A DNA stretch of 64,000 nt from Verrucomicrobiales bacterium (GTDB taxonomy: Bacteria; Verrucomicrobiota; Verrucomicrobiia; Limisphaerales; J093): positions 3,732 to 67,731 of the forward strand of contig JABTUJ010000042.1 in assembly GCA_015075445.1 (NCBI GenBank), written 5' to 3'. Under the pieces are notes generated by a model. That model was given only the letters and a program-made list of their open reading frames with translations. It searched no databases and was not told where the DNA came from. This document shows, one piece after another, positions 1-50,982 of the stretch; positions within the stretch are counted from its first letter, which is position 1; each line of letters begins with the position of its first letter. The position numbers and the translations under genes are program-made.

Positions 1-1
1 G

Positions 2-2190
2 CGGGTCAACTTCTCGGCCGCGGAGGGTTACGTGGATGGGCCGTTATGGGGCCAGCCGGCAGGAAGGGGCACGCCCACCTGGACCTCGGTGAGTGAGAAC
101 ACCGGTGACACCTATGTCCCCGAGGACGGCATCCGTCACATTTGTCAGTCGATCACGAACGGGGCGCTGTGCATTCGCCCAGACCAGAATCTGGGCACGT
201 TGACATCGGTGATGTATTGGACGTTTCCCTTTCCTGTCCAGCGCAAGGGGCCCATCACCGTCACCTGGGACTGGCAGTTCTTCCCGACGAATGAAATCCC
301 CACCGATTACGACCCGACGAACAACAACTACCAGGCGACCCTGCAAGGCACGGACGTCGGCTTCACCCTGAGCGACTCCGCGAATCGCACCTTGGGCGAC
401 AGCGCCGTCTGGGCCGTGTTCAACGAGCTGAGCACCCCGACGCGTCTGGGGGGCCTTTGCGATTCACGGTACAATGGGAGTGGTGAGTACGGCACCTGCG
501 GCGGCGGCGGGAACTGGAATGACAAGGGGCCCCAATACAAGGACGGCAAGAAGCTGCAGATGAAGATGGTGGCCTACTTCGGCAACCCGGACGATCCAGC
601 CAACGACAGTTACGACGTCTGGGCCCAGCGGGAAGGGGAGGAGCTCTGGCACACGACCGTCAACGATTTCTATCCCGACGGCAAGTTCCCCATGCGACGC
701 TGCCCCGGAGAGGCGGACGGAGACCCCAAGCTGGACTGCATCACGATGTGGCTGAATACCGGTGTGTACGGCACCTACCTCCTGATTGACAACATCCAGG
801 TCACGGGTCCGGACCCGATCGAAACGTACAGCATCGGTCTGAACTTTGGCGCCGACGAAGCCGATGGCAGCAAGTCGGGCACGCTGGCCGCCACCGACAA
901 GGCGGGTATGCCGGCGGTGGCGCAGGTCAACTGGAACAACCTGAAGCTTGCTCAACGGGGCCAGCGCAACCCCATCCTCGCCGACGTCGCGGCACGGCCG
1001 AACCCACCACCGTCTCCGTCGTGTGGAGCTCGGCCAACACGTGGTCCTCCACCGGTCGCGGCGAGGAGAACAATGCGTTCAGCGGCGCGGACAAGGCGCT
1101 GCTGACCGGTTATTTGGACACCGGAAATGCGTCGACCTCAACGGTGCAGATCGCAAGCATCCCCGCCGAACTCACGGAGGCGGGCTATGACGTTTACATC
1201 TATGCCCTGGGCGGGGTGGGCGGTCGCGGCGGCAGCTACCGGATTCTCGACACCGCGACCGGCAAGGTGCTGCGCGATTCCATTCGGGCGCAATCCCCCA
1301 CCAACCTAACCTCGTATGTCGAGGTGCCGGCGAACCTGGGCGCGACGGCCAACGGGGCCGCGAACCTGGTGTTTGGGGCGGGCAACTACCTGGTCTTCCG
1401 CGGTCTGACCGCCGCAGGAATCACCGTGGAGGCCCGCACGGCCGCGGCGGGCGGGGGCGTGGGCTTCAGCGCAACGCCGCGCGCGCCGATCAATGCGATT
1501 CAGTTGGTAAGTCCGGCCGCGGAGGCGGTGTGGGAGGACGTCACGATGCCCGGGGATTGGATTGTGACCAGCAATTCGGACGACCGCTCACCGGCGTCGG
1601 AGCGGGTGCCCAACGCGATCGACAACAGCGTGCTCACGAAGTACCTCAACTTCGGCAACGACACGGACCAGGCGGCCCCGTTCGTCGGTCCGGTGGGCCT
1701 GACCGTGAAGCCCAGTGCCGGCGCGTCGGTGGTGACCGGCTTGGCGTTCACGTCGGCCAATGATGCGCCCGAACGGGATCCGGCGGCCTACAAGCTGGAA
1801 GGGTCCAATGACGGCGCCACGTTCACCCTGATCTCCGAAGGGCCGGTGGGGGCGTTCAGCGCCCGGTTCATCCGGCAGGAGATCCCCTTCGCGAACACGG
1901 CCGCCTACACAACGTACCGGCTGTCGATTCCCAATGTCGCCAATAACGCGACCGCTAACAGCATGCAGTTCGCCGAAGTGGAGTTGCTGGGGATCGTGGT
2001 GGCGCCGAAGTTCACGGCCATCACCCACAACGCGGACGGTTCGGTGACCGTCCAGTGGAAGAGCGGCGGAACCCTGCAGGCGGCTCCCAGTCTGGCCGGC
2101 CCGTGGCAGGATGTGCCCGAGGCCACCAGCCCTTACACGTTCAAACCGGCGGAGACCGGACCAGTGCTGTTCGGCCGGATCAAGAAGTAA
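2..2190 (+). CDS. Large secreted concanavalin/LamG-like plus F5/8 type C (discoidin) domain protein; 5' partial at window edge; frame change near 985-1000
   Basis: ORF 32..1105 (frame 2, open back to nt 2) and ORF 1021..2190 (frame 1) read as one protein: ...VAQVNWNNLKLA...ILADV then GTAEPTTVSVVWSSANTWSSTGRGEENNAF. The C-terminal half has a discoidin-like block (NAIDNSVLTKYLNFG...YKLEGSNDGATFTLI...MQFAEVELLG) and a W..G..L..AP.L.GPW tail. Confidence 0.6.
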
Positions 2191-2220
2191 GCGGCTGCCT
2201 GCACCTCCAGTTCAGCCAGA

Positions 2221-2248
2221 CAGAGACCGGGCTTCGGCCCGGTCTCTG
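2221..2248 (+). terminator. Stem-loop 30 nt after the stop of the first gene
   Basis: cagagaccgggc ttcg gcccggtctctg: perfect 12-bp stem with a UUCG loop. There is no U tract, so intrinsic terminator function is uncertain. Confidence 0.4.
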
Positions 2249-2408
2249 CTATCGAAGATCATGGTCTAGGAGTTCAGATCGACAGCCTGGCCAACCGCAT
2301 GCGGCCGGAACGGAGCGACAAGCTCACAGCCTCCCCGGCGGCCACTGCTCGAACTGATTAGGCGACTTGCCGTGCTTGATGATCTCAAGACCGAACGGTA
2401 TCGGCTTC

Positions 2409-2735
2409 TCAGGTGCAGTGCGCGCACGGGTCAGTTCGGCCCTCGCGCAAATCGTCCACCTCGTAGCCGGCGCGCAGGGCGCGGCCCGGGACGGGTTCCC
2501 ATCCGAACCAGAACCGGAAAGTGTGATAGGCCGCGGAGTGGGACAACGGGAAGCGATCGAAGACCTCCCGCCATCGCGCCAGTAATCGGAAGGTAGCGGG
2601 TTCGGGGACAATCCCGTAATCCCACTGGGCACAAATACGCTGCAGGTAGTCGGCCCGGTCCTCCACGGTTGCGAGATCGGCCGGTTCCAGTGGAGGCTGG
2701 TCGAGATCGGGATAGACGCTCTGGTCCAGTTTCAT
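2409..2735 (-). CDS. Hypothetical 108-aa protein, translationally coupled to the upstream AbiEii-like gene
   Basis: ATG 2735-2733 overlaps the TGA 2734-2732 of the upstream gene (ATGA). Begins MKLDQSVYPDLDQPPLEPADL and contains ...FRFWFGWEPVPG. No family recognised. Confidence 0.5.
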   Translation of the reverse strand: MKLDQSVYPDLDQPPLEPADLATVEDRADYLQRICAQWDYGIVPEPATFRLLARWREVFDRFPLSHSAAYHTFRFWFGWEPVPGRALRAGYEVDDLREGRTDPCAHCT

Positions 2736-3436
2736 GGCCGGAACGGCTGCAAGAACACGGCCCGGAACCAAACGCGGGTTTGTCGTGCCTGTTCGCGCTG
2801 CACCGGGTCGGTCAGGGTGTCCAGGGGTCGGCGCAATTCGATCTCGTGCAGGCGCCGCCCGACTTCTGCGTGGGCATCGTCAGAACTCAGATCGGGGTTC
2901 TTTCGTTTCCAGAGGTCCCAGCATTGCGTCGGGGTGAGGTGGCCGGTAGTGACCAACTGCCGGATGTCCGTGAAATCCCGGGGTGCACCTCGCTGAACGA
3001 GGGCATTCATCTTCGAGGCGACGTTGTCGGCGAAGGTTTCGATGAGCAACGGGGGCCAGGGGCTCGGTAAGGACGGCTCCAACCGCAGCGTCCGGCTGGC
3101 GACTTGAAAGGAAAAAACCTTGCTCCCCGCCTGCCGCAACTCCCACGACTCGGTGTCGCCGAACCGGCGCCGGTTGACGGTCAATCCCTGTTTGCCGGCG
3201 AGGGATTCGAGCACGGTATTCAATGCCGCCCGCGCTTGCTCCCGATCCGACTCGCGGCTCTCCTCGGCCCACCAGGCATCGACGTCATGGGTGATGCGGT
3301 AATCATGGTAGTGCTTCAGGGCAAAGTAGCCCCCCAACACGAGATGCCGCGCTGCGGGAAAGGACTGGAGCCCGGTCAACGAGGCCTCGGCCAGCGGGTC
3401 GATCTCGCTCGGTCGCTGTGGCGCCGGTTGCTGCAT
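2732..3436 (-). CDS. Nucleotidyltransferase, AbiEii/AbiGii toxin-like (DUF1814-like)
   Basis: From MQQPAPQRPSEIDPL. Motifs HLVLGGYFALKHYHDYRITHDVDAWW and FADNVASKMNALVQRGAPRDFTDI resemble the AbiEii NTase core. The ORF track start at 3547 is probably too long. Confidence 0.65.
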   Translation of the reverse strand: MQQPAPQRPSEIDPLAEASLTGLQSFPAARHLVLGGYFALKHYHDYRITHDVDAWWAEESRESDREQARAALNTVLESLAGKQGLTVNRRRFGDTESWELRQAGSKVFSFQVASRTLRLEPSLPSPWPPLLIETFADNVASKMNALVQRGAPRDFTDIRQLVTTGHLTPTQCWDLWKRKNPDLSSDDAHAEVGRRLHEIELRRPLDTLTDPVQREQARQTRVWFRAVFLQPFRP

Positions 3437-3562
3437 AGTGCGGCGCCCAGTCAACCACCCGAGCCGCAGGGTGACAATCGCCGAAACACCTCCCGGGCCC
3501 GGGTCAAGGGTCGGCGGCGACTGCGCCCCACGGGGCCGCCACTCCAAGGGAGGCGGACTCGG

Positions 3563-5002
3563 TCAGGAACACTCGCCACCGGTGGAGTTGAACACCCGCA
3601 CCCAACCGCCGCTGCCCGGGACCTCGCGCTGGCTCCTGCCCTCCCGGGCAAAGCCAATGACCGGTTCCTGCCACTCCGGTTGCCCAGACCCAACCCGGCT
3701 CCAGCAACGCGCGGGCGAGGTCCGCCGTCCCACCAACCACCACGTGGCGGTCGGCCCGCGCCCCTTCACGTCGATTGCCCCCCGGCACTCGAATTCGTAG
3801 GCGTGTTCCACGCGCCGCCGGAAGGCATCGGTCACCTGGATCCGCCCCGGTAACCCGTGCACCTGCATCCGGCTCGCCATCGTGACCGGTTCGCCCCAGA
3901 GATCGTAGGTCAGCTTGGACCGGCCAATGACGCCCGCCACCGCCGGACCGCACGCGATGCCGATCCGCACCCGGTTGGGCAACGGCCCGTGCGGTGAGCG
4001 CCGCGCGAAGTGGTCGCGGCAAGCCAGCGCCATCGCGGCCATGCGTTCAGCATGGTCAGGTTGGGCCACGGGCAAGCCCGCCACCGCCAGGTAGGCGTCG
4101 CCCATGGTCTTGATCTTCTCGACCCCGTGCGCCCGGGCGATCTCGTCCAGTTCACTGAAGAGCGTGTTCAACTCAGCCACCAGCGTCTCGGGAGCCACCG
4201 CCGCCGAGTGGGCGCTGAAGTTCACCAGGTCGAGGAAGAGCACCGAGACCTCCTCGAACCGCTCCGCCACCGGTCCCGGCTGTTGTTTCAGCCGCTGCGC
4301 CACCGGCTCGGGCAGAATGTTCCGCAGCAACGCCTCGTTCCGCGCCCGCTCGTCCTCGGCCCGCAGGGCGTGGAGAAAACTCATCCGGGCACTCCGCTCG
4401 CTGCTATAGCTCGCCACCGCCCCCAGGAGCAGCGCGGAGAGGAAGAAGAAGTGGTTGTTTAGGACCACCGGCGGTTCCACGCCGCCCTGGAGGACCAGTT
4501 GGACGTCGTAACCCACGACCACGGCCAGGGAGGTCACCAGCGCCAGCGGAAAGGGCAGCCAGCGGAAGGCGTGCGTCGCCATCAGCACCAGGATGAGCCC
4601 GACGTAGTAGAGCGACTGGACCCCGCCGGACGTCAAGGCCAGCATCCCCACAATGCCCCCGCCGGTGGCCAGGATCGTCAGCGACAGCAAGGCCGACCGC
4701 CAGCGCCCAAACCCCGCCTGTCGCGTGGCCACCAGCACGCCCGTGATCCACGTACACACCACGACCCGGATCCACCCGATCTCGCGAGCCACCTCGGGAG
4801 CAATCGCCAGATCCAGCCAGGCAAACACGGCGTACAACGCCAGCGCCAGACCCAGCGTCAGCCGAATGCGACCCAGCGACGCCTGGTCGTCATACCGGCG
4901 CCAGGCCCGCTCGGTCGCCTCAGTCCCGAAGCGCAACGAAAACGGGCGGAGCCGCTCCTCCCCCAGGCACACAGGCTCCCGGGGACTATCGGGCGGGGCC
5001 AT
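3563..5002 (-). CDS. Membrane-anchored class III adenylate/guanylate cyclase
   Basis: About 6 predicted TM helices, then the cyclase core FEEVSVLFLDLVNFS...KIKTMGDAYLAVAGLP...RIGIACGPAVAGVIG...YDLWGEPVTMASRM. Start taken at ATG 5002 (MAPPDSPREP). About 55 aa of non-conserved C-terminal tail. Confidence 0.85.
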   Translation of the reverse strand: MAPPDSPREPVCLGEERLRPFSLRFGTEATERAWRRYDDQASLGRIRLTLGLALALYAVFAWLDLAIAPEVAREIGWIRVVVCTWITGVLVATRQAGFGRWRSALLSLTILATGGGIVGMLALTSGGVQSLYYVGLILVLMATHAFRWLPFPLALVTSLAVVVGYDVQLVLQGGVEPPVVLNNHFFFLSALLLGAVASYSSERSARMSFLHALRAEDERARNEALLRNILPEPVAQRLKQQPGPVAERFEEVSVLFLDLVNFSAHSAAVAPETLVAELNTLFSELDEIARAHGVEKIKTMGDAYLAVAGLPVAQPDHAERMAAMALACRDHFARRSPHGPLPNRVRIGIACGPAVAGVIGRSKLTYDLWGEPVTMASRMQVHGLPGRIQVTDAFRRRVEHAYEFECRGAIDVKGRGPTATWWLVGRRTSPARCWSRVGSGQPEWQEPVIGFAREGRSQREVPGSGGWVRVFNSTGGECS

Positions 5003-7762: not shown

Positions 7763-8546
7763 ATGAATCGCACGCCCCCCTTCCCCGCCCTCCTCCTCGC
7801 CCTCAGCCTGGGCTCCACCCCCCTCGCCGCCGCCGACCTCGTCTATGCCCGCGACGGCTCGGGCACCTTCGGCTACAAGGACACCCCCAAGCTCCCCTGG
7901 TGCGAGTGGCTGGTGCACGACCCGGACCGTCCGGCCCCGCCGCGCCTGGATCCCGGTCGCAACCCAGCCCTGCCCCGCCGACGCCACCGTGCTCTTCGAC
8001 GGCCGCAACCTCGACGCCTTCCAGGCCCACCGCTGGTCGGTCGAACGCGGCGAGATCGTCTCCGGCGCCGGCAACCTCGCTTCGAAGGCCGTTTTCGGCG
8101 ACTGCCAGATCCATCTGGAATGGCTCGCGCCGCTCGGCTTCAAAGGACCGTGGTACGACCAGGGCAACAACGGCGTCCTCCTCATGGGCCTCTACGAGAT
8201 CCAGATCTTCGACTCCTACAACGAGCGGCTCTACCCCGATGGCCAGGCCGCGGCTATCTACGGCCAGACCCCGCCCCGCGTGAATGTCACCCGCCCCCCC
8301 GGCCAGTGGCAGACCTTCGACATCGTTTTCACCGCCCCCGTCTTTGCCGACGGCCAACTCAAGCGCCCCGCCCGCGTCACGATGTTCCACAACGGCGTGC
8401 TGGTGCACCTCGAGGAGACCGTCCACGGCGAGACCGGCCACCGGATCGTGCCCGCGTACAAACAAGGCGTCAGCCAGGGCCCGCTGGTCCTCAGCGGTCA
8501 TGGGTGCCCCGTTCGGTTCCGCAATATCTGGGTGCGGCCGCTCTGA
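7763..8546 (+). CDS. DUF1080 (3-keto-disaccharide hydrolase-like) secreted protein, frameshifted near 7950-7980
   Basis: The signal peptide and N-terminus (MNRTPPFPALLLALSLG...GYKDTPKLPWCEWLVHDPDRPAPPRLDPG) are in frame 2. The rest (PADATVLFDGRNLDAF...VRFRNIWVRPL) is in frame 0 (ORF 7845..8546). Length is not a multiple of 3. Confidence 0.7.
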
Positions 8547-9545: not shown

Positions 9546-11156
9546 ATGAGCAAGCGGTTCTACATCACCACCGCGATCGACTATGTCAACGGCCAACCGC
9601 ACCTCGGCCACGCGTACGAGAAAGTCATCACCGACGTCATCGCGCGCGCGCGTCGCAGCCTCGGCGAGCCGGTCTTCTTCCTGACCGGCACCGACGAGCA
9701 CGGCCAGAAGGTACAGCAGGCCGCCCAGGCGGTGGGCAAGACCGCCCAGGCCTATTGCGACGAGCTCGCCGCCCAGTTCCAGGCCCTGACCGTCGCCCTC
9801 AACCTCTCCAACGACGACTTCATCCGCACCACCGAACCCCGCCACAAAGCCGTCGTCTCCGCCCTCCTCACCAAGCTCCATGACCAGGGCGACCTCTACA
9901 AGGCCCCCTACCGCGGCTGGTATTCCTGGAAGGAAGAGACCTTTCTCACCGACAAAGACCGTGGACCCGACGGCACCTTCGCCCCCACCTGGGGTGAGGT
10001 GACGGAGCTCGTCGAGGAGAACTGGTACTTCCGCATGAGCCGCCACCAGGGCTGGCTGCTCGATCACCTCGAAGCCCATCCCGACTTCGTCCAGCCCGAC
10101 TACCGCCGCAACGAGATCCTCGGCTTCCTGCGCTCGGTCGCGCTCGATGACCTCTGCATCAGCCGCCCCCGCGCCCGCCTCAGTTGGGGCATCCCCCTGC
10201 CCTTCGATCCGGACTACGTGAACTACGTCTGGTTCGACGCCCTCACCAATTACTTCAGCGTGCCGGCCGCCCTGGGCGATCCGGGCGCCCTCGAGCCGCT
10301 CGGTGCGTATGCACCCAAGGCCGAAGGCCGAAGGCCGAAGGTCGAAGGGCGAAGTGCGGGGGACGAAGTTCGAAGTCCGGAAGCCGAAGTCCGGCTGTGG
10401 CCGGCGGACGTGCACGTCATCGGCAAGGACATCGTCCGGTTCCATGCGGTTTATTGGCCGATCATGCTCCATGCGGCCGGCGTCCCCCTGCCCCACCAGG
10501 TGCTCGTCCACGGCTGGTGGCAGAAGGACGGCGAGAAGATGAGCAAGACCACCGGCAACGTCGTGGACCCCCTCGCCGTCGTCCGTGACTGGGGCGTCGA
10601 TGCCTTTCGCTATTACGTCGTGCGCGAACTCGATATCGGGCCCGACGGCAATTGGACCGATGCCGGGTTTCGCGCCCGTTATACGGCCGAGCTCGCCAAC
10701 GGCCTGGGCAACCTCGTCAACCGCTCGCTCGCCATGCTCCAGCGCTATCGTGGCGGGATCGTGCCCGCGCGCTCGGACGAGCTGGCCACCGAGGTCCTGC
10801 AGACCGCCAGCCGGCTCACCGCCCAGCTCCGCGCCCACCAGCTCCAGGCCGGCCTCATCACCATCTGGGGCCTCGTCAACCGCGCCAACCAGTACGTGGA
10901 CCAAACCGCACCGTTCAAGCTCGCCAAGGACCCCGCCCAGGCCAGCCGCCTCGACGCCGTTCTCTACAACCTCGTCGAGACGTCCCGCATCCTCGCCGTC
11001 CTGCTCTGGCCGTTCCTCCCCACCACCGCGGCGCGAATCACGCAGCAACTCGGCCTGAACGAGACCCCCGATCACCTCAGCGCCGCGGATTGGGGCGGCC
11101 TCGCCCCCGGCCATCGGATCGGCCAGCCCGAACCCTTGTTCCCGCGCAAAGAATGA
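9546..11156 (+). CDS. metG: Methionine--tRNA ligase (with ~27-aa low-complexity insertion)
   Basis: MSKRFYITTAIDYVNGQPHLGHAYE (HIGH-type motif), GEKMSKTTGNVVDP (KMSKS). The insertion PKAEGRRPKVEGRSAGDEVRSPEAEVR precedes WPADVHVIGKDIVRFHAVYWP. Confidence 0.95.
   Translation: MSKRFYITTAIDYVNGQPHLGHAYEKVITDVIARARRSLGEPVFFLTGTDEHGQKVQQAAQAVGKTAQAYCDELAAQFQALTVALNLSNDDFIRTTEPRHKAVVSALLTKLHDQGDLYKAPYRGWYSWKEETFLTDKDRGPDGTFAPTWGEVTELVEENWYFRMSRHQGWLLDHLEAHPDFVQPDYRRNEILGFLRSVALDDLCISRPRARLSWGIPLPFDPDYVNYVWFDALTNYFSVPAALGDPGALEPLGAYAPKAEGRRPKVEGRSAGDEVRSPEAEVRLWPADVHVIGKDIVRFHAVYWPIMLHAAGVPLPHQVLVHGWWQKDGEKMSKTTGNVVDPLAVVRDWGVDAFRYYVVRELDIGPDGNWTDAGFRARYTAELANGLGNLVNRSLAMLQRYRGGIVPARSDELATEVLQTASRLTAQLRAHQLQAGLITIWGLVNRANQYVDQTAPFKLAKDPAQASRLDAVLYNLVETSRILAVLLWPFLPTTAARITQQLGLNETPDHLSAADWGGLAPGHRIGQPEPLFPRKE
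10316..10394 (+). repeat. Heptanucleotide array (GAAGGCC-like x ~11) inside metG
   Basis: aaggccg aaggccg aaggccg aaggtcg aagggcg aagtgcg ggggacg aagttcg aagtccgg aagccg aagtccgg. The array lies in frame within the coding sequence. Confidence 0.85.
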
Positions 11157-21450: not shown

Positions 21451-21550
21451 GTAGGCGCCGACGTCAGGAGGCGTTGTGTGCGGACGTCAGGAGGCGTTGT
21501 GCGCGGACGTAAGGAGGCGTTGTGTGCGGACGTCAGGAGGCGTTGTGCGC
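21451..21550. repeat. Tandem array, 4 x 23 bp (CGGACGTCAGGAGGCGTTGTGYG) derived from the GTAGGCGCCGACGTSAGGAGG element
   Basis: gtaggcgccgacgtcaggaggcgttgtgtg cggacgtcaggaggcgttgtgcg cggacgtaaggaggcgttgtgtg cggacgtcaggaggcgttgtgcg. Confidence 0.85.
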
Positions 21551-21591
21551 CGAGCGAAACGACGTCGTTCCGTCTCCTCTTCCTCCGCAGG

Positions 21592-24575: not shown

Positions 24576-25521
24576 CGATCACATCGCCCCGGTCGGTGAA
24601 TCCGCGCACCACCACAAGATGACCGTCCGAGCGGTCCCGCGGCTGGCCGCGCAGCAGGTTGTACGACACCGACACCGCCACGGGCACCCCCGCTGCCACC
24701 CAATCCTCGAGCTCCGCCACGTCGCTCAGCCGCGTCACGTACGCGCGCAACCCGGGGAAACTGCCGGCGAAGGCGGTATTGAAGGGCCAGTTGCCTGTGC
24801 CCGGCCACTGCGGATCGTGCACCGCCCGGGCCACCTCCGGCACGTCCACGGCAAGTTCCGGACGACCAAGCCGTTCGGACCAGTAGGCGAGCAACATGGC
24901 GAGACTCGTCGGGCTGCACCAAGCCGACACGCCCTCTGGATAGATCACCTGGCTCCGTTCCGGCACCGGCAACTCGCGCCCCCAAGCGGCCTGGTTCGGC
25001 GGCAGCGCCTCCCATGACTCCCGGCGCTTCAGCAGGCTCAGGCCGAGAAACACCAGCCGCGGTCGGATCTCGGCCGACGCCGCCGACAGCGTGACACGGA
25101 GCTGCACCGTGCGCGCCGGTTCACGCAGCACCAGGGTATCCGTCTGCACCTCGCCATGTTCGTCCTTCTGGCCGGGGACGCTTTCACGGGGATGCCCGGC
25201 CGGATCGCTGGCCCACAGACCCAGCACGTAGAAGCGCGTGGGCGGCGACGGGTCGAGCCGGCGCACCTCGAACTTCAGCCCCGTCCCGGACGGGGTCGTG
25301 GCATTCCACGAAAGCACCGCTTCGTCCCAGGCAATCGCCGGTTGAATGGGCGGCGAAACGAGCACCTGCTGGTCGGCTTTCTCCCCCGCCTGACTCTCCC
25401 AATCTGCGAACCGATCCCAACTCAAGAACTGTCGCCCCCTGTGTTCCGCGGCTTGGGCGGCCACCCCCCCGTTCAGACCGACGCACAGCGCCAGTCCCGA
25501 CAAGCACCAGGTAAGCTTCAT
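24430..25521 (-). CDS. Secreted peptidase C39-like (C39_2-type) protein
   Basis: Signal peptide MKLTWCLSGLALCVGL. Candidate catalytic Cys in VSAWCSPTSLAMLLAYW and candidate His in DGHLVVVRGF. The ATG overlaps the rhomboid stop (ATGA at 25518-25521). Confidence 0.65.
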   Translation of the reverse strand: MKLTWCLSGLALCVGLNGGVAAQAAEHRGRQFLSWDRFADWESQAGEKADQQVLVSPPIQPAIAWDEAVLSWNATTPSGTGLKFEVRRLDPSPPTRFYVLGLWASDPAGHPRESVPGQKDEHGEVQTDTLVLREPARTVQLRVTLSAASAEIRPRLVFLGLSLLKRRESWEALPPNQAAWGRELPVPERSQVIYPEGVSAWCSPTSLAMLLAYWSERLGRPELAVDVPEVARAVHDPQWPGTGNWPFNTAFAGSFPGLRAYVTRLSDVAELEDWVAAGVPVAVSVSYNLLRGQPRDRSDGHLVVVRGFTDRGDVIVNDPGTRREIRREFPRANLVQAWAVSENTVYLVYPTDLSRPPNRFGHW

Positions 25522-26423
25522 GCACTTCCTCGGCTCAAGGCGAGCGCCCAGCATATCGCTACCAACACGATGGCGGTGGCGCCGGCCAGGCGATCGGCCC
25601 GGGTGCCCCCGCCGTAGCGCTCCGGCAGCAGGTTTAACAGCACACCGAGCCCCAAGCCCCCGAAGAATCCTCCCGTGTGCGCCACCACATCACTTCGTGG
25701 GCTCAGCCCCAGGAGCACGAACAGGAGGCCGCCCGCGAGCACCCCGGTCAACCACGAGCGACGTGCTGCCAACGGATGCCGCCACAGCGCCAGCGATTGC
25801 ACGGCGAGCAACCCCAGCGCGCCCATCACCACACCCGACGCCCCCAGGCCCCGGTACGGCGCCGCGTGAAACCCCAGGCCGGCCAGATTCCCGATCCCGC
25901 CCGCCAGGAGCGTGGTCAACAGCGCCCAGCCCGCTCCATACCGGCCCATGGCCAGGCCCAGCACCACGATGCCGGTGGACACGTTCGCCGCCAGGTGCCC
26001 CACATCCGCATGCAGCATCGTGGCCGTAAACAGCCGCCACCATTCGCCGGTCGCCGGCACCGTGTGGCTCATGGCCCCGACCGCCTCGAGGTTCCCCCCG
26101 CCGGCCTCCGCCAGCCAATGCATCGCGATCATCACCCAGCACCACGCCAGCACCCCCCAGTGAAAGGTCACCCCCCACTCACGCCACTGCTGGCGCAAGG
26201 CCCAGCGCCGATTCTCCAGCCGGTACTGCCGGATGGTGGCAACCGCCGCCGCTTGCTGCTCCGTGCTCACCAGCAATACCCAGCCCAGCCCGCTTTCCTG
26301 GAAATCAATCGTGACCTCGATGCCCTGGCTCGCCAGCGCCAGACTCCAGTCCATCGCCTGCCGACGCGATCGCGTCGGAATCGCCACCCACGGCAGCGGG
26401 GCAGTTGGCAGGTCAGCGGACAC
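25518..26423 (-). CDS. Rhomboid-family intramembrane serine protease with N-terminal cytoplasmic domain
   Basis: MLHADVGHLAANV (HxxxN) and GLGASGVVMGALG (GxSG). GTG start at 26423. Confidence 0.85.
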   Translation of the reverse strand: MSADLPTAPLPWVAIPTRSRRQAMDWSLALASQGIEVTIDFQESGLGWVLLVSTEQQAAAVATIRQYRLENRRWALRQQWREWGVTFHWGVLAWCWVMIAMHWLAEAGGGNLEAVGAMSHTVPATGEWWRLFTATMLHADVGHLAANVSTGIVVLGLAMGRYGAGWALLTTLLAGGIGNLAGLGFHAAPYRGLGASGVVMGALGLLAVQSLALWRHPLAARRSWLTGVLAGGLLFVLLGLSPRSDVVAHTGGFFGGLGLGVLLNLLPERYGGGTRADRLAGATAIVLVAICWALALSRGSA

Positions 26424-27860
26424 CGAAGGGAAGTTCCAAGGTCAAAGCGCAAAGCTCAAGGGAAGATCCAGGGCCCGAGACCGCAGGTGCCATCTGGACG
26501 GAACGCAGCGGCTGGAAGCTCCAAGGACAAAGTTCAAAGCTCAAGGGAAGGGCCAAGCTCAAGGGGACAAGCGCCCAGTGCGCGGCGACCAGGGTTGGGC
26601 TCGGCACCCTGGCACTTGGAGGTTGAAGCTTTCCTTGAGCTTTGAGCTTTGACCTTGGAGCTTCCGTCCTTCCCTTGAGCCTTGAGCTTTGACCTTGGAG
26701 CTTCCGTCCTTCCCTTGAGCTTTGAGCTTTGACCTTGGAGCTTCCGTCCTTTCCTTGAGCTTTGAGCTTTGACCTTGGAGCTTCCGTCCTTTCCTTGAGC
26801 TTTGAGCTTTGACCTTGGAGCTTCCGTCCTTTCCTTGAGCTTTGAGCTTTGACCTTGGAGCTTCAGTCCTTTCGCCCAGGCTTTGAGTTGACCTTGGAGC
26901 TTCCGTCTTTCAGGCCTTGAGCTTTGACGCGGAGCTTCCGTCCTTTCTTTGCCAGGCTTTGAGCTTTGAGCTTCCGTCCTTTCATGAGCTTTGAGCTTTG
27001 ACGGAGCTTTCGTCCTTTCGCCAGGCTTTTGAGCTTTGGACTTGAGCTTCGTCCTTTTGAGCCATGAGCTTTGACGGAGCTTCAGTCCTTTCGCCAGGGC
27101 GCTGACGCTTGGAGCTTCCGTCCTTTCCTTCAGGCCTTGAGCTTTGACCTTGGAGCTTCCGTCCTTTCCGCCGAGGCTTGAGCTGACTTTGAGCTTCGTC
27201 CTTTCGCTGAGTTGAGTTTTGGACCTTGGAGTTTGTCCTTTCATGAGCAGCAGGCTTTGACCTTGGGCTTCCGTCCTTTCCTTGAGCTTTGAGCTTTGAC
27301 GCGGAGCTTCCGTTCTTTACAGCGGGCTTTGAGCTTGACGGGCTTCGTCCTTTCGCGGGCTTTGAGCTTTTGACGCGGAGCTTCCGTCCTTTCCTTGAGC
27401 CAGCAGCTTTGACGGGCTTCCGTCCTTTCGCAGGCAGCGAGCTTTGACTTTGGAGCTTCCGTCCTTCCCATTGAGCTTTGAGCTTTGACGCGGGCTTCCG
27501 TCCTTCCTTGAGCTTTGAGCTTTGACCGCCGGAGCTTCGTCCTTTCAGCCAGGCTTTGAGGCTTTGACCCGGGCTCTGTCCTTTTCAGAGCCTTGAGCTT
27601 TGACCTTGGAGCTCCGTCCTTTCCTTGAGCCTTGAGCTTGACCTTGAGCTTCCGTCCTTTCGCCAGGCTTTGAGCTTTGTGACCTTGAGCTTCCGTCCTT
27701 TCGCCAGGCTTGAGCTTTGACCTTGGAGCTTCCGTCCTTTCCTTGAGCCTTGAGCTTTGACCTTGGAGCTTCCGTCCTTTCCTTGAGCCTTGAGCTTTGA
27801 CCTTGGAGCTTCCGTCCTTTCCTTGAGCTTTGAGCTTTGACCTTGGAGCTTCCGTCCTTC
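26424..27860. repeat. Satellite-like tandem array of a 40-bp unit (about 31 forward copies plus about 2 inverted copies)
   Basis: Unit CTTCCGTCCTTTCCTTGAGCTTTGAGCTTTGACCTTGGAG. There is exact 40-nt phasing at 26661-26861 and at 27729-27849. The central copies are degenerate. Inverted copies lie at 26427-26565. Confidence 0.95.
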
Positions 27861-28466
27861 AGACGGCCCCCACTTGCTGCAGCGCCGCCCGCGACTGCAC
27901 GGGGTCTTCGTGCACCACGCCCTGCCAGCCGCGGCGCCAGCTAACCTCGACGTTCGCCGCCGGTCGTCGGTGGAACAGGTCCGCGCCGCGCCAGCCGCTG
28001 GAGTCGGCTCCGCCAGCTCGACCATCGGCGGCGCCGGCTTCATCGAGTGCACCTCGTAGGAAAGGATGTAGCCATCGAATGCGGCGAAGAACGGAAACTG
28101 TGCCCGGACGAACTCGACCGCCATCTCGTTCGTGTTCGAGAACAGGTAGGTCGACAGGCCACGCGCCCGCAGCTCCGCGTGCAGCGCCACCATCGGCTCG
28201 ATCGGGGTGAAGATGTCGCCAAACACGCTCCGGAACTCGGCCAGCGTGCCGTCGTAGCCGGTTACCGCCTGGAGGCGTTCGAAGAACTCGGCGGTGGTTC
28301 GCTGTCCGCTTTCATATTCAAGCAGCAACGGCTCGAGCGTGAGCAGCCGCCGCAGGTCATCGAAACCCACGCGGCAGCGCGGCAGGAGGCGCCGCAGCGC
28401 GATCCCGTAATCGAAATCCAGGAGCACCTTGCCCAGGTCAAAGATGATCGCCTTGGGAACAGACAT
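27859..28466 (-). CDS. HAD-superfamily hydrolase, frame changes in the last ~200 nt
   Basis: MSVPKAIIFDLGKVLLDFDY (DxD motif)...YLFSNTNE...ILSYEVHSMKP. The C-terminus is recoverable in other frames: STDDR / AANVEVSWRRGWQGVVHEDPVQSRAALQQVGAV, with the stop at 27859-27861. The listed ORF instead runs into the satellite. Confidence 0.7.
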
Positions 28467-33172: not shown

Positions 33173-33969
33173 ATGCGCACGCCTCCCGACTACCACCTCC
33201 ACACCCCGCTCTGCCGGCACGCCACCAGCACGCCCACCGAATACGCCGCCCGCGCCGTCGCCCTCGGCTTCGACGAGATCGGTTTCTCCGACCACAACCC
33301 CATGGCGCGCGACGACTTTGACGACTGGCGGATGCGGCTGGATCAACTCGACCACTACGTCGAACTCGTCGCCCAGGCCGCAGAACACCCCACCCTCCGG
33401 ATCAAGCTCGCCCTCGAGGTCGACTACACTCCCCGGCTGCGAGTTGGATCCGCGACCTCGCCGCCCGCCATCCCTGGGATTACTTCATCGGCTCGGTTCA
33501 CTATGTCTCCGACGACTGGGACATCGACAACCCCAAGAAGCTGGCCGAGTGGCGGAACCGTGATGCCTTCGAAGTCTGGCGGCTCTACCTGGAACGACTC
33601 ACCCAGGCGGCGGCCTCCGGGCTCTTCGAGATCATCGGCCACGCGGACCTGGCCAAGAAATTCCGGTTCTATCCGCAGCAGGATGTGCAGCCCCTGTTCC
33701 GGCGGTTCCTCGAAGCCGCCCGAAAAAGCGGCACAGCCATCGAGCTCAACACCGCCGGTCTGCGCAAGGATTGCCGCGAGATCTACCCGGCCCGGCCCAT
33801 CCTGGCGCTCGCCTCGGAACTGGGCGTGCCGATCACGTTCGGTTCGGACGCCCATGCCCCGGAGGAACTGGGCGCGGACTTCGAGACCGCCCGGGCCCTG
33901 GCCCGCAGCGTCGGGTATGGTCATTGCCTGCGCTTTACCCGGCGCGAGCGTGAACTGCAGGTGTTTTGA
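33173..33969 (+). CDS. PHP-family histidinol-phosphatase-like protein, two frame changes at about 33431-33445
   Basis: MRTPPDYHLHTPLCRHA...GFSDHNP...LALEVDYT (frame 2), PGCE (frame 0), WIRDLAARHPWDYFIGSVHYVSDDWDIDNP...IIGHADL...ITFGSDAHAPEEL...ELQVF (frame 1, includes ORF 33685..33969). Confidence 0.75.
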
Positions 33970-38594: not shown

Positions 38595-38693
38595 GTCCCG
38601 GTCCAGCCGAAGTACGGCGACGCCACACAGCAGCCGTTCTCGCTTTGACCATGCCCCCCAAGCCGGGTGTGGGCACCCAGGCGAACGCCTTGC

Positions 38694-38788
38694 CAATCCG
38701 CACCCTTGTAGGCCGGGTGCCCTCACCCGGCGATCCCCTCCCCAATCCGCGCCCTTGTAGGCCGGGTGCCCGCACCCGGCGATCCCCC
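38694..38788. repeat. Two tandem copies (period 48) of the GTAGGCCGGGTGCCCTCACCCGGC hairpin element
   Basis: caatccgcacccttgtaggccgggtgccctcacccggcgatcccc followed by caatccgcgcccttgtaggccgggtgcccgcacccggcgatcccc. Confidence 0.85.
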
Positions 38789-48317: not shown

Positions 48318-48463
48318 GTAGGCCGGGTGCCCTCACCCGACGCAGGCCCTTTCGCTGTAGGCCGGGTGCCCTCACCCGGCGCAGGTCCTTTCGCTGCAGG
48401 CCGGGTGCCCTCACCCGGCGCGGGTCCTCTCGCTGTAGGCCGGGTGCCCTCACCCGGCGCGCG
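48318..48463. repeat. Tandem array of 4 hairpins, 39-bp period (GTAGGCCGGGTGCCCTCACCCGGCGCAGGTCCTTTCGCT)
   Basis: Copies start at 48318, 48357, 48396 and 48435. Each contains an 8-bp stem GCCGGGTG/CACCCGGC with a 4-nt loop. Confidence 0.9.
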
Positions 48464-50599: not shown

Positions 50600-50962
50600 C
50601 TCCGTCCAACGCCGCAACCCGTCCCGTCAACGCCGCAACCCGTCCCATCCAACGCCTGGCCAAACCCATCCAACGCCGCAACCACGTCCCGTCCAACGCC
50701 CGCAACCCGTCCCATCCAACGCCAGGCCCGTCCCGTCCAACGCCGCAGCCGTCCCATCCAACGCCACCAGCCGTCCATCCAACGCCGCAACCCGTCCCAT
50801 CCAACGCCGCAACCCGTCCCATCCAACGCCGCAACCCGTCCCATCCAACGCCGCAACCCGTCCCATCCAACGCCGCAACCCGTCCCGTCCAACGCCGGAG
50901 CCCGTCCCATCCAACGCCGGAGCCCGTCCCATCCAACGCCGGAGCCCGTCCCATCCAACGCC
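50600..50962. repeat. Tandem array of a 22-bp unit (about 16 copies)
   Basis: The unit CCGCAACCCGTCCCATCCAACG is near-perfect from about 50770. A CCGGAGCCCGTCCCATCCAACG subtype makes up the last 3 copies. Copies are degenerate toward 50600. Confidence 0.9.
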
Positions 50963-50982
50963 GGAGGCGTTCCAGACGGTAG

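Follow-up and report, generated by a model that had tools for sequence, protein, structure and literature searches.

The gap between a HAD-family hydrolase gene and a rhomboid protease gene in a 64-kb stretch of a Verrucomicrobiales genome (contig JABTUJ010000042.1; the whole stretch of 64,000 nucleotides is referred to as the window) harbours a long tandem array of a 40-nt unit. The array is a genuine minisatellite, far beyond what chance would generate, and represents an unusually large but explainable bacterial minisatellite rather than a new kind of system. We consider it reasonably probable that this non-coding array arose in the lineage of the window when one arm of a hairpin element was amplified in tandem. 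The element is dispersed and resembles miniature inverted-repeat transposable elements (MITEs) and the hairpin-forming pairs of repetitive extragenic palindromes (REPs) termed REPINs.

The program Tandem Repeats Finder, which an initial annotation of the sequence had suggested as a check of its 40-nt satellite, recovers the array at positions 26629-27859 with a period of 40, 32.1 copies, 78% matches, 11% indels and a score of 1182. The consensus is a rotated form of the unit given in that annotation, and period-7 rows in the output reflect the heptamer substructure that had been proposed for it. According to both the program and a unit-by-unit alignment, the units are arranged head-to-tail without spacers and fall into the 10-100-nt range of minisatellites. 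A CRISPR array is ruled out, since the units abut directly and no unique spacers separate the repeats. A 23-mer spanning the unit junction yields 14 matches at up to three mismatches, compared to none in 100 shuffled sequences. A wrap-around alignment divides the array into three parts:

26622-26860, no strand assigned: rhomboid-side block of six near-perfect units (units 2-7), of which units 3-7 measure 40 nt and unit 2 measures 39 nt.
26861-27728, no strand assigned: core of about 23 diverged units of 33-41 nt each, with a GC content slightly above that of the edges.
27729-27861, no strand assigned: HAD-side block of three near-perfect units plus a partial unit, which overlaps the HAD stop codon.

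Units 2-7 and units 31-33 (27729-27848) are 39-40 nt long and carry 0-2 substitutions, with the exception of the degenerate start of unit 2. The exact 40-nt phasing claimed for both flanks is found, as CTTCCGTCC is present at every position listed for it, and the proposed contrast between clean edges and a decayed centre agrees with the alignment, which places about 23 units in the core instead of about 20. The core contains recurring multi-base variants, in particular CCTTGAG to CGCCAGG, and GACCTTGGAG to GACGCGGAG or GACGGAG; a higher-order period was looked for in the core and none was detected. AT and GC sites are equal in number in the core, and substitutions from AT to GC outnumber those from GC to AT by 49 to 16 (about 3:1). 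The array has a GC content of 0.51-0.58 compared to 0.65-0.74 in the flanks, and its plus strand is strongly T-skewed.

The earlier reading of the array as a non-coding satellite is borne out by a flat codon-position profile and by the lack of homologues. In the open reading frames (ORFs) of the array the GC content at the first, second and third codon position amounts to 0.54/0.54/0.54, whereas third positions reach 0.82-0.85 in the neighbouring genes. A basic, Lys/Ser/Gln-rich repeat protein might nonetheless be encoded on the minus strand, either alone or as a C-terminal extension of a frameshifted HAD protein, given that the consensus unit can be read without a stop in every minus-strand frame (but in none of the plus-strand frames), that ORFs of 236 and 76 amino acids exist and that the frameshifted HAD ORF extends about 275 nt into the array. 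Yet, each minus-strand frame of the array is interrupted by 2-4 stops, the lengths of the units (33-41 nt) follow no 3-nt period and the indels are not multiples of three. The 236-residue ORF lacks a match in Pfam and a homologue among 5.8 billion proteins, a collection in which the conserved Lys/Ser/Gln-rich homologues that would have argued for coding were not found either. Moreover, the closest relative of the locus, L003, carries a single unit and no such ORF, and in five other assemblies the HAD gene is intact and ends at the array edge. Neither a conserved frame, nor codon bias, nor homologues, as expected of a repeat-protein gene, are seen in the array; hence, the coding alternative is largely refuted, and we regard it as extremely unlikely.

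The probable origin of the unit becomes apparent at the rhomboid end of the gap. The initial annotation had described the gap as consisting entirely of copies of the unit; some 200 nt next to the rhomboid gene, however, hold two inverted arms and about 115 nt of unique sequence instead of forward copies. Likewise, the two opposite copies that had been assigned to 26427-26565 exist (26428-26468 and 26514-26551), while the unique sequence thought to span about 60 nt reaches to approximately 26621. The following features are distinguished:

26428-26468, minus strand: R2, a solo 3'-type arm (CTTCCCTTGAGCTTTGCGCTTTGACCTTGGAACTTCC), the end of which lies just in front of the rhomboid start codon (nhmmer arm profile, E = 8e-12).
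26469-26513, minus strand: unique spacer between R2 and R1, alignable to L003.
26514-26551, minus strand: R1, the 3' arm of a complete hairpin element (nhmmer, E = 1.6e-11), which pairs with the last array unit in the minimum free energy fold.
26552-26621, minus strand: inner segment of the hairpin element, mostly unique, with a small hairpin of its own; homologous to L003 9721-9800.
26513-26663, minus strand: complete family element, composed of the last array unit (5' arm), the inner segment and R1 (3' arm), which aligns with 12 other elements.

The long hairpin postulated for this inverted end is predicted with high stability: the sense RNA of 26410-26700 folds at -162 kcal/mol (z = -11). 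In silico, a nested duplex forms as soon as at least two units are present, where the last unit pairs with R1 and the preceding unit pairs completely with R2. If transcribed, the array RNA would thus form duplexes with the two inverted copies ahead of the rhomboid gene. In the fold of the one-unit L003 sequence R1 alone is paired, and R2 is free.

The last array unit and R1 belong to a dispersed family. The 40-nt unit consists of a 30-nt arm (AAGCTCCAAGGTCAAAGCTCAAAGCTCAAG), 5 nt of the inner side (GAAAG) and 5 nt of the HAD-side flank (GACGG). A degenerate pattern taken from inside the unit retrieves 28 JGI soil-metagenome contigs with a GC content of 0.46-0.73, which include a few duplicate loci and otherwise differ in their flanking sequence. 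Complete hairpins of 130-210 nt make up about 15 of these loci; they share the 30-nt arms and are arranged as 5' AAGCTCCAAGTTCAAAGCTCAAAGCTCAAG, a variable inner hairpin and CTTGAGCTTTGAGCTTTGAACTTGGAGCTT 3'. The outer 30-bp helix is 91% paired over 13 copies, compared to at most 57% in a shifted register, and includes two compensatory pairs; the arm sequence is maintained across the entire GC range of the contigs. One of the 28 contigs falls into a protein cluster named Verrucomicrobia by NCBI, and the family is at least partly verrucomicrobial. An exact 23-mer over the unit junction found no match in GTDB species genomes or JGI metagenomes, because this probe is too specific, containing the HAD-derived CGTCC. 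No further family copy is present in the window or in 80 verrucomicrobial loci, and on this basis the copy number per genome appears low.

The family elements share with MITEs a non-coding body of less than 300 nt, terminal inverted repeats and an occurrence at many unrelated loci. The flanks of the approximately 12 cleanest elements were inspected and contain no direct repeat indicative of a target-site duplication, and no transposase was noticed adjoining any family copy, although no systematic search was made. As in REPINs, two inverted repeat units and a spacer form a hairpin; the ends, however, read AAGCTCC...GGAGCTT and lack the GTAG or CGTC tag of REPs. No RAYT gene was found in the 64 kb of this genome, and no arms lie close to the Y1_Tnp gene of L005. 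The elements sit between tandem, divergent and convergent genes, and Pfam assigns the seven downstream genes tested to unrelated functions (NIF3, Cmk, ABC ATPase, FAD-binding protein, TauE, ADH and MoxR). Sense and antisense strands of the elements fold about equally well. Searches of Rfam produced only sub-threshold matches to generic microRNA-precursor hairpins, and collections of viruses, plasmids and phages contained no match to the family. These features fit a palindromic repeat of the MITE/REPIN kind at the DNA level and not an oriented regulatory RNA.

Several other identities were considered for the family and dismissed. A regulon-type leader is at odds with the unrelated downstream genes, and an oriented structured RNA with the equal folding of both strands. 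An intrinsic terminator would require a U-tract, which is missing after the 3' arm, and the element also occurs between divergent genes. Integron attC sites are discounted by inspection, since GTTRRRY core sites are absent and the context is one of housekeeping genes. Contig L096 was rejected as a parent element: the whole contig is a palindrome with a 622-631-nt duplication and contains no transposase ORF. Over its positions 1-4568 the ends of L096 are complementary, and the tandem duplication bears longer hairpin elements with arms about 300 nt apart. L096 is probably a chimeric assembly, and it shows that whole elements can undergo tandem duplication. Two further contigs display the same slippage tendency as the array on a smaller scale, namely a small arm expansion in L103 (1308-1395; 32-nt unit, 2.7 copies) and heptamer runs (AAACACC / TTTGGTT) beside a family arm in L107 (1728-1888).

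The relatives of the locus document different states of the same region. The closest public relatives are labelled Pedosphaerales and comprise L003 (ERZ24907708), assigned to genus DSVZ01, and L006, which is the metagenome-assembled genome FR_27. L003 is about 93% identical to the window and fully syntenic. Its HAD stop codon is followed by AGGACGGAAG and exactly one unit, beyond which the inner segment, R1 and R2 lead up to the rhomboid start as in the window; the copy number is therefore 32 in the window versus 1 in L003, with the reservation that L003 is possibly a collapsed assembly. In L006, the rhomboid gene of which is 95% identical, the upstream genes are different and R2 alone is found immediately upstream of the GTG. 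R2 is thus kept directly before the rhomboid start codon in three genomes (window, L003 and L006). In relatives at 65-73% identity the unit, the inner segment, R1 and R2 are all absent. Since an expanded array was seen only in the strain of the window, with one unit in L003 and only R2 in L006, it appears to be specific to the lineage of the window. The distribution suggests that R2, as the piece most widely shared among these relatives, may be the oldest one. A different conserved motif (GGCATTGGCAG ... CGTATCTTCG) is located about 60-100 nt upstream of the rhomboid start in L010-L013 and is possibly an ancestral promoter region; in the clade of the window this type of upstream motif is replaced by arms of the hairpin family.

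The sequence of the units permits a tentative account of how the array was formed. The two borders of the unit share (G)AAG, and a first duplication may have occurred through this short microhomology. Slipped-strand mispairing or unequal recombination would then have expanded the array, a process that the heptamer substructure and the nearby hairpin would favour. Older units presumably drifted toward the high GC content of the genome, and the blocks at both ends of the array may have been duplicated recently, although the homogenisation proposed in the initial annotation would also yield clean edges. The array most likely lacks a dedicated function and is a neutral or mildly harmful by-product. 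As a side effect, R2, which abuts the rhomboid start codon, would become base-paired if transcription of the HAD gene reads through; in the one-unit relative L003 it would stay free.

Several observations weigh against the amplification of a hairpin arm. A mobilising enzyme or parent element of the family was not found, although no systematic search was made. The single copy in L003 could reflect a collapse if that assembly was generated with a small k, and L004, which represents the same strain, breaks at the arm. The total length of the array and its diverged core are taken from the window assembly alone, and a patch of discrepancies in the HAD gene lies so close to the array (80-160 nt away) that local consensus problems are possible. 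The core units vary unevenly, GGAGCTTCCGTCCTTT and GAGCTTTGA being almost invariant, which could reflect selection. Finally, in about 7 of about 24 loci the 3' arm, which ends in GGAG, is positioned 7-16 nt before a start codon, and this arrangement hints at a role in translation initiation.

The tandem array itself is not confined to one assembly. L114, assembled with k=141, enters the array by 50 nt and contains the unit-to-unit junction of GGAAAG and GACGGAAG, which L003 lacks. Three Logan contigs (k=31) from different sequencing runs end at 27830 (L115 and L117) or 27831 (L116), and this is the exact point where the 30-mer AAGGACGGAAGCTCCAAGGTCAAAGCTCAA, which occurs 10 times in the array of the window, gains two alternative successors. 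The junction in L114 and the contig ends at the predicted branch therefore indicate that a tandem array with the same two unit variants is present in independent samples. The window sequence does not account for the breakpoints of L001, L002 and L004, and these were left out of the evidence. Apart from the HAD patch, the short-read contigs of this strain match the window without any difference wherever they overlap it. Between 24100 and 30086, contigs L001, L114-L118 and L120-L122 are 100% identical to the window over 0.8-2.4 kb each, three of them except for the patch; the number of sequencing runs or assemblies behind them is eight or more, and the same clone or a very tight population was sampled repeatedly.

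The length and the decayed core might still be mostly an artefact of assembly or polishing, in which case an array would exist, but its units would be more alike and their number uncertain. Polishing is difficult in tandem arrays, and the clean blocks of about 240 and 130 nt approximate the reach of reads anchored in the unique flanks. The HAD patch (27943-28022) comprises 12 differing positions within 80 nt (8 substitutions and 5 gap columns), includes indels that frameshift the gene and is missing from four independent short-read contigs (L114-L117); the HAD gene of L003 is intact as well. The patch represents either an error in the local consensus or a cluster of mutations specific to the strain. 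In addition, the window carries a second frameshift relative to L003, in a gene for a PHP-domain protein, and the core ORFs are matched by no called protein of any other assembly. Conversely, outside the patch the window is completely identical to the overlapping short-read contigs, and the core variants, which recur, span several bases and show a 3:1 bias from AT to GC, do not resemble homopolymer noise. This bias matches the expectation for decay toward a genome of 68% GC. A truly diverged core would be mappable, so that short reads could correct it, and a 22-nt array at 50605-50963 of the window also contains diverged units, which in that case adjoin unique sequence. With its recurrent multi-base variants, its substitution bias and an otherwise exact assembly, the core divergence looks evolutionary. 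We regard an artefact of this kind as unlikely and the diverged core as probably largely real.

A different explanation assigns the array a function as a cis-regulatory RNA device. The 5'-type arms, transcribed together with the HAD gene, would pair with R1 and R2 and would thereby mask the stretch directly ahead of the rhomboid start codon or create substrates for RNase III; the copy number would tune or silence the rhomboid gene and the adjacent gene for a C39-like peptidase in the manner of a contingency locus. The predicted fold is compatible with such a device, as two or more units pair R2 completely and a single unit, as in L003, leaves it free. So are the conservation of R2 immediately before the start codon in three genomes, the GGAG-ending 3' arms 7-16 nt ahead of start codons at several loci and the location of all genes of the region on one strand. 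On the other hand, two units suffice for the pairing and 32 are not needed, and a 1.2-kb untranslated stretch more probably causes polarity. Within the family there is no folding advantage of the sense strand, elements also occur between divergent and convergent genes, and the neighbouring genes examined with Pfam differ in function. Furthermore, no promoter or terminator signal stands out at the locus. Taken together, a regulatory device appears quite unlikely.

The array might also act as a protein-binding array or sponge, either at the DNA level, for a nucleoid- or iteron-like binder of the TTGAGCT heptamers, or at the RNA level, for a binder of GGA motifs, which the sense unit contains as part of AAGGAAAGGACGGAAG. 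The near-invariance of GGAGCTTCCGTCCTTT and GAGCTTTGA even in diverged units and the preservation of the arm across contigs of GC 0.46-0.73 would be in agreement with a binding site. However, no candidate binding protein was identified, Rfam provided no match, and L003 manages without an array. The uneven conservation is also explicable by the spread of a few variant units. Accordingly, we deem a binding array very improbable.

The amplification of a hairpin arm could be taken one step further. The AAGCTCC...GGAGCTT family would then constitute an undescribed non-autonomous mobile element of soil Verrucomicrobiota, which inserts without target-site duplication tight against start and stop codons, and the array would be a copy-number-tunable switch, the surplus 5' arms of which capture the solo arm bearing the ribosome-binding region of the rhomboid/C39 pair. 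This combined proposal seems distinctly doubtful to us.

Compared to known repeat systems, the amplified hairpin arm combines several familiar features. Hairpin-forming MITEs such as the Correia elements and ERIC are 100-200 nt long, possess long terminal inverted repeats, are located tight against gene ends and form long duplexes when co-transcribed. The family described here has the size, terminal inverted repeats, gene-end position and duplexes in common with them, but a target-site duplication and a parent insertion sequence were not found. To our knowledge, the amplification of an arm into a satellite is not a described feature of the Correia and ERIC families. The MIRU-type variable-number tandem repeats of mycobacteria are 40-100-nt tandem units between co-oriented genes of operons, the copy number of which varies among strains. 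MIRUs usually consist of few copies at many loci and often form small ORFs, which overlap with the stop and start codons on either side. The tandem units between co-oriented genes are shared with the locus in the window, whereas few copies, many loci and small ORFs are not seen here.

REPs, their clusters termed bacterial interspersed mosaic elements (BIMEs) and REPINs are likewise dispersed intergenic palindromes, which are found singly or as inverted pairs that fold into a long hairpin, lack a target-site duplication and may build tandem clusters that include flanking DNA (PMC3733652, PMC3116915). The tandem reiteration of REPs plus flanking DNA has been described before (PMC3733652). In contrast to REPs and REPINs, the family in question ends in AAGCT...AGCTT without a GTAG/CGTC tag, its arm is a direct run of heptamers and not a self-palindrome, no RAYT gene was found nearby, and the copy number per genome appears low, as judged from the 64-kb window and 80 related loci.

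A minisatellite inside a MITE has already been reported for the BrickBuilt elements of Porphyromonas gingivalis (PMC4596501). Both systems feature an intergenic, non-coding and spacerless minisatellite within a dispersed element with inverted-repeat ends, imperfect units with conserved and variable positions, and a copy number that varies widely among loci (1 to 22.8 in BrickBuilt). The BrickBuilt 23-nt repeat is an internal module at all 19 loci, whereas here the repeat comprises a terminal arm plus flank. Moreover, a single locus is known to be expanded here, the array is longer (32 x 40 nt), and the sequences are not similar. Promoter activity has been demonstrated for BrickBuilt (PMC4596501).

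Bacterial satellites are mostly short, or have a unit length divisible by three that suggests coding, and those with long units mostly look coding; their median number is 0-3 per Mb, and 2.7% of them exceed 1.5 kb (PMC6749651). The array shares with them the head-to-tail arrangement in a bacterial chromosome, but differs by being non-coding, with a 40-nt unit and a length of 1.23 kb, which places it in the upper tail of the distribution (PMC6749651). The initial claim that an array of this length is unusual for a bacterial chromosome holds insofar as it belongs to this upper tail; precedents exist, though (PMC6749651, PMC4596501). Small non-coding arrays seem to be unusually frequent in the host genome. 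Several arrays are present in the window, and the 64-kb stretch is far richer in satellites than the bacterial median of 0-3 per Mb (PMC6749651).

The locus offers a sequence-level view of the birth of a satellite, which connects the arm of a hairpin repeat, a border homology of 3-4 nt and 32 copies versus one in a syntenic relative of 93% identity. What appears to be new is that the unit can be traced to one arm of a palindromic repeat family with scattered copies. The hairpin family in soil Verrucomicrobiota is without a match in Rfam, and a non-exhaustive check of the literature yielded no matching element. All examined short-read assemblies that reach either edge of the locus ended there, and metagenome-assembled genomes therefore systematically lack such arrays. 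Transcription of the array would alter the leader of the rhomboid/C39 protease pair.

All genes of the region are located on the minus strand, in the order dnaX, ybaB, recR, HAD hydrolase, array, rhomboid protease and C39-like peptidase, and a signal recognition particle RNA gene lies upstream of dnaX. Two genes border the array:

25518-26423, minus strand: rhomboid protease gene (Pfam PF01694, E = 1.2e-15), downstream of the array in the direction of transcription.
27859-28466, minus strand: HAD-family hydrolase gene (Pfam PF00702), upstream of the array and frameshifted in the window.

The rhomboid gene starts with GTG at 26423 and with ATG at the equivalent position of L003; its homologues comprise about 300 amino acids. 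The HAD gene is intact in L003 and L114-L117, where it encodes 202 amino acids, and since it ends at 27859-27861 in these sequences, the corrected stop codon of the initial annotation is in the right place. The PHP-domain gene is split into two frames at about 33433-33445, and the orthologue in L003 is intact; among 18 genes compared, this is the only clear frameshift besides that of the HAD gene.

Other small non-coding arrays and tandem REP clusters in the window point to a genome-wide tendency. The second apparently non-coding satellite (50605-50963) consists of 16.5 copies of the 22-nt unit TCCAACGCCGCAACCCGTCCCA; its right half is perfect, while the left half is diverged though it adjoins unique sequence. 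It is located upstream of a minus-strand ORF that resembles a short-chain dehydrogenase, as judged from its translation, and within about 25 nt it is followed by the perfect palindrome CCGGAGGTCGCCGCGCGGCGGCGACCTCCGG. REP-like palindromes with a GTAG tag (GTAGGCCGGGTGCCCTCACCCGGCG...) are tandemly reiterated 3.7 times at 48318-48460, and a related palindrome is reiterated 2.6 times at 38662-38787. Further arrays of the window lie at 21455-21553 and 10317-10393, and the repeats of the window include a 23-nt array of 3.8 copies. Small tandem palindrome clusters are found in L006 as well, at 521-584 and 8299-8365.

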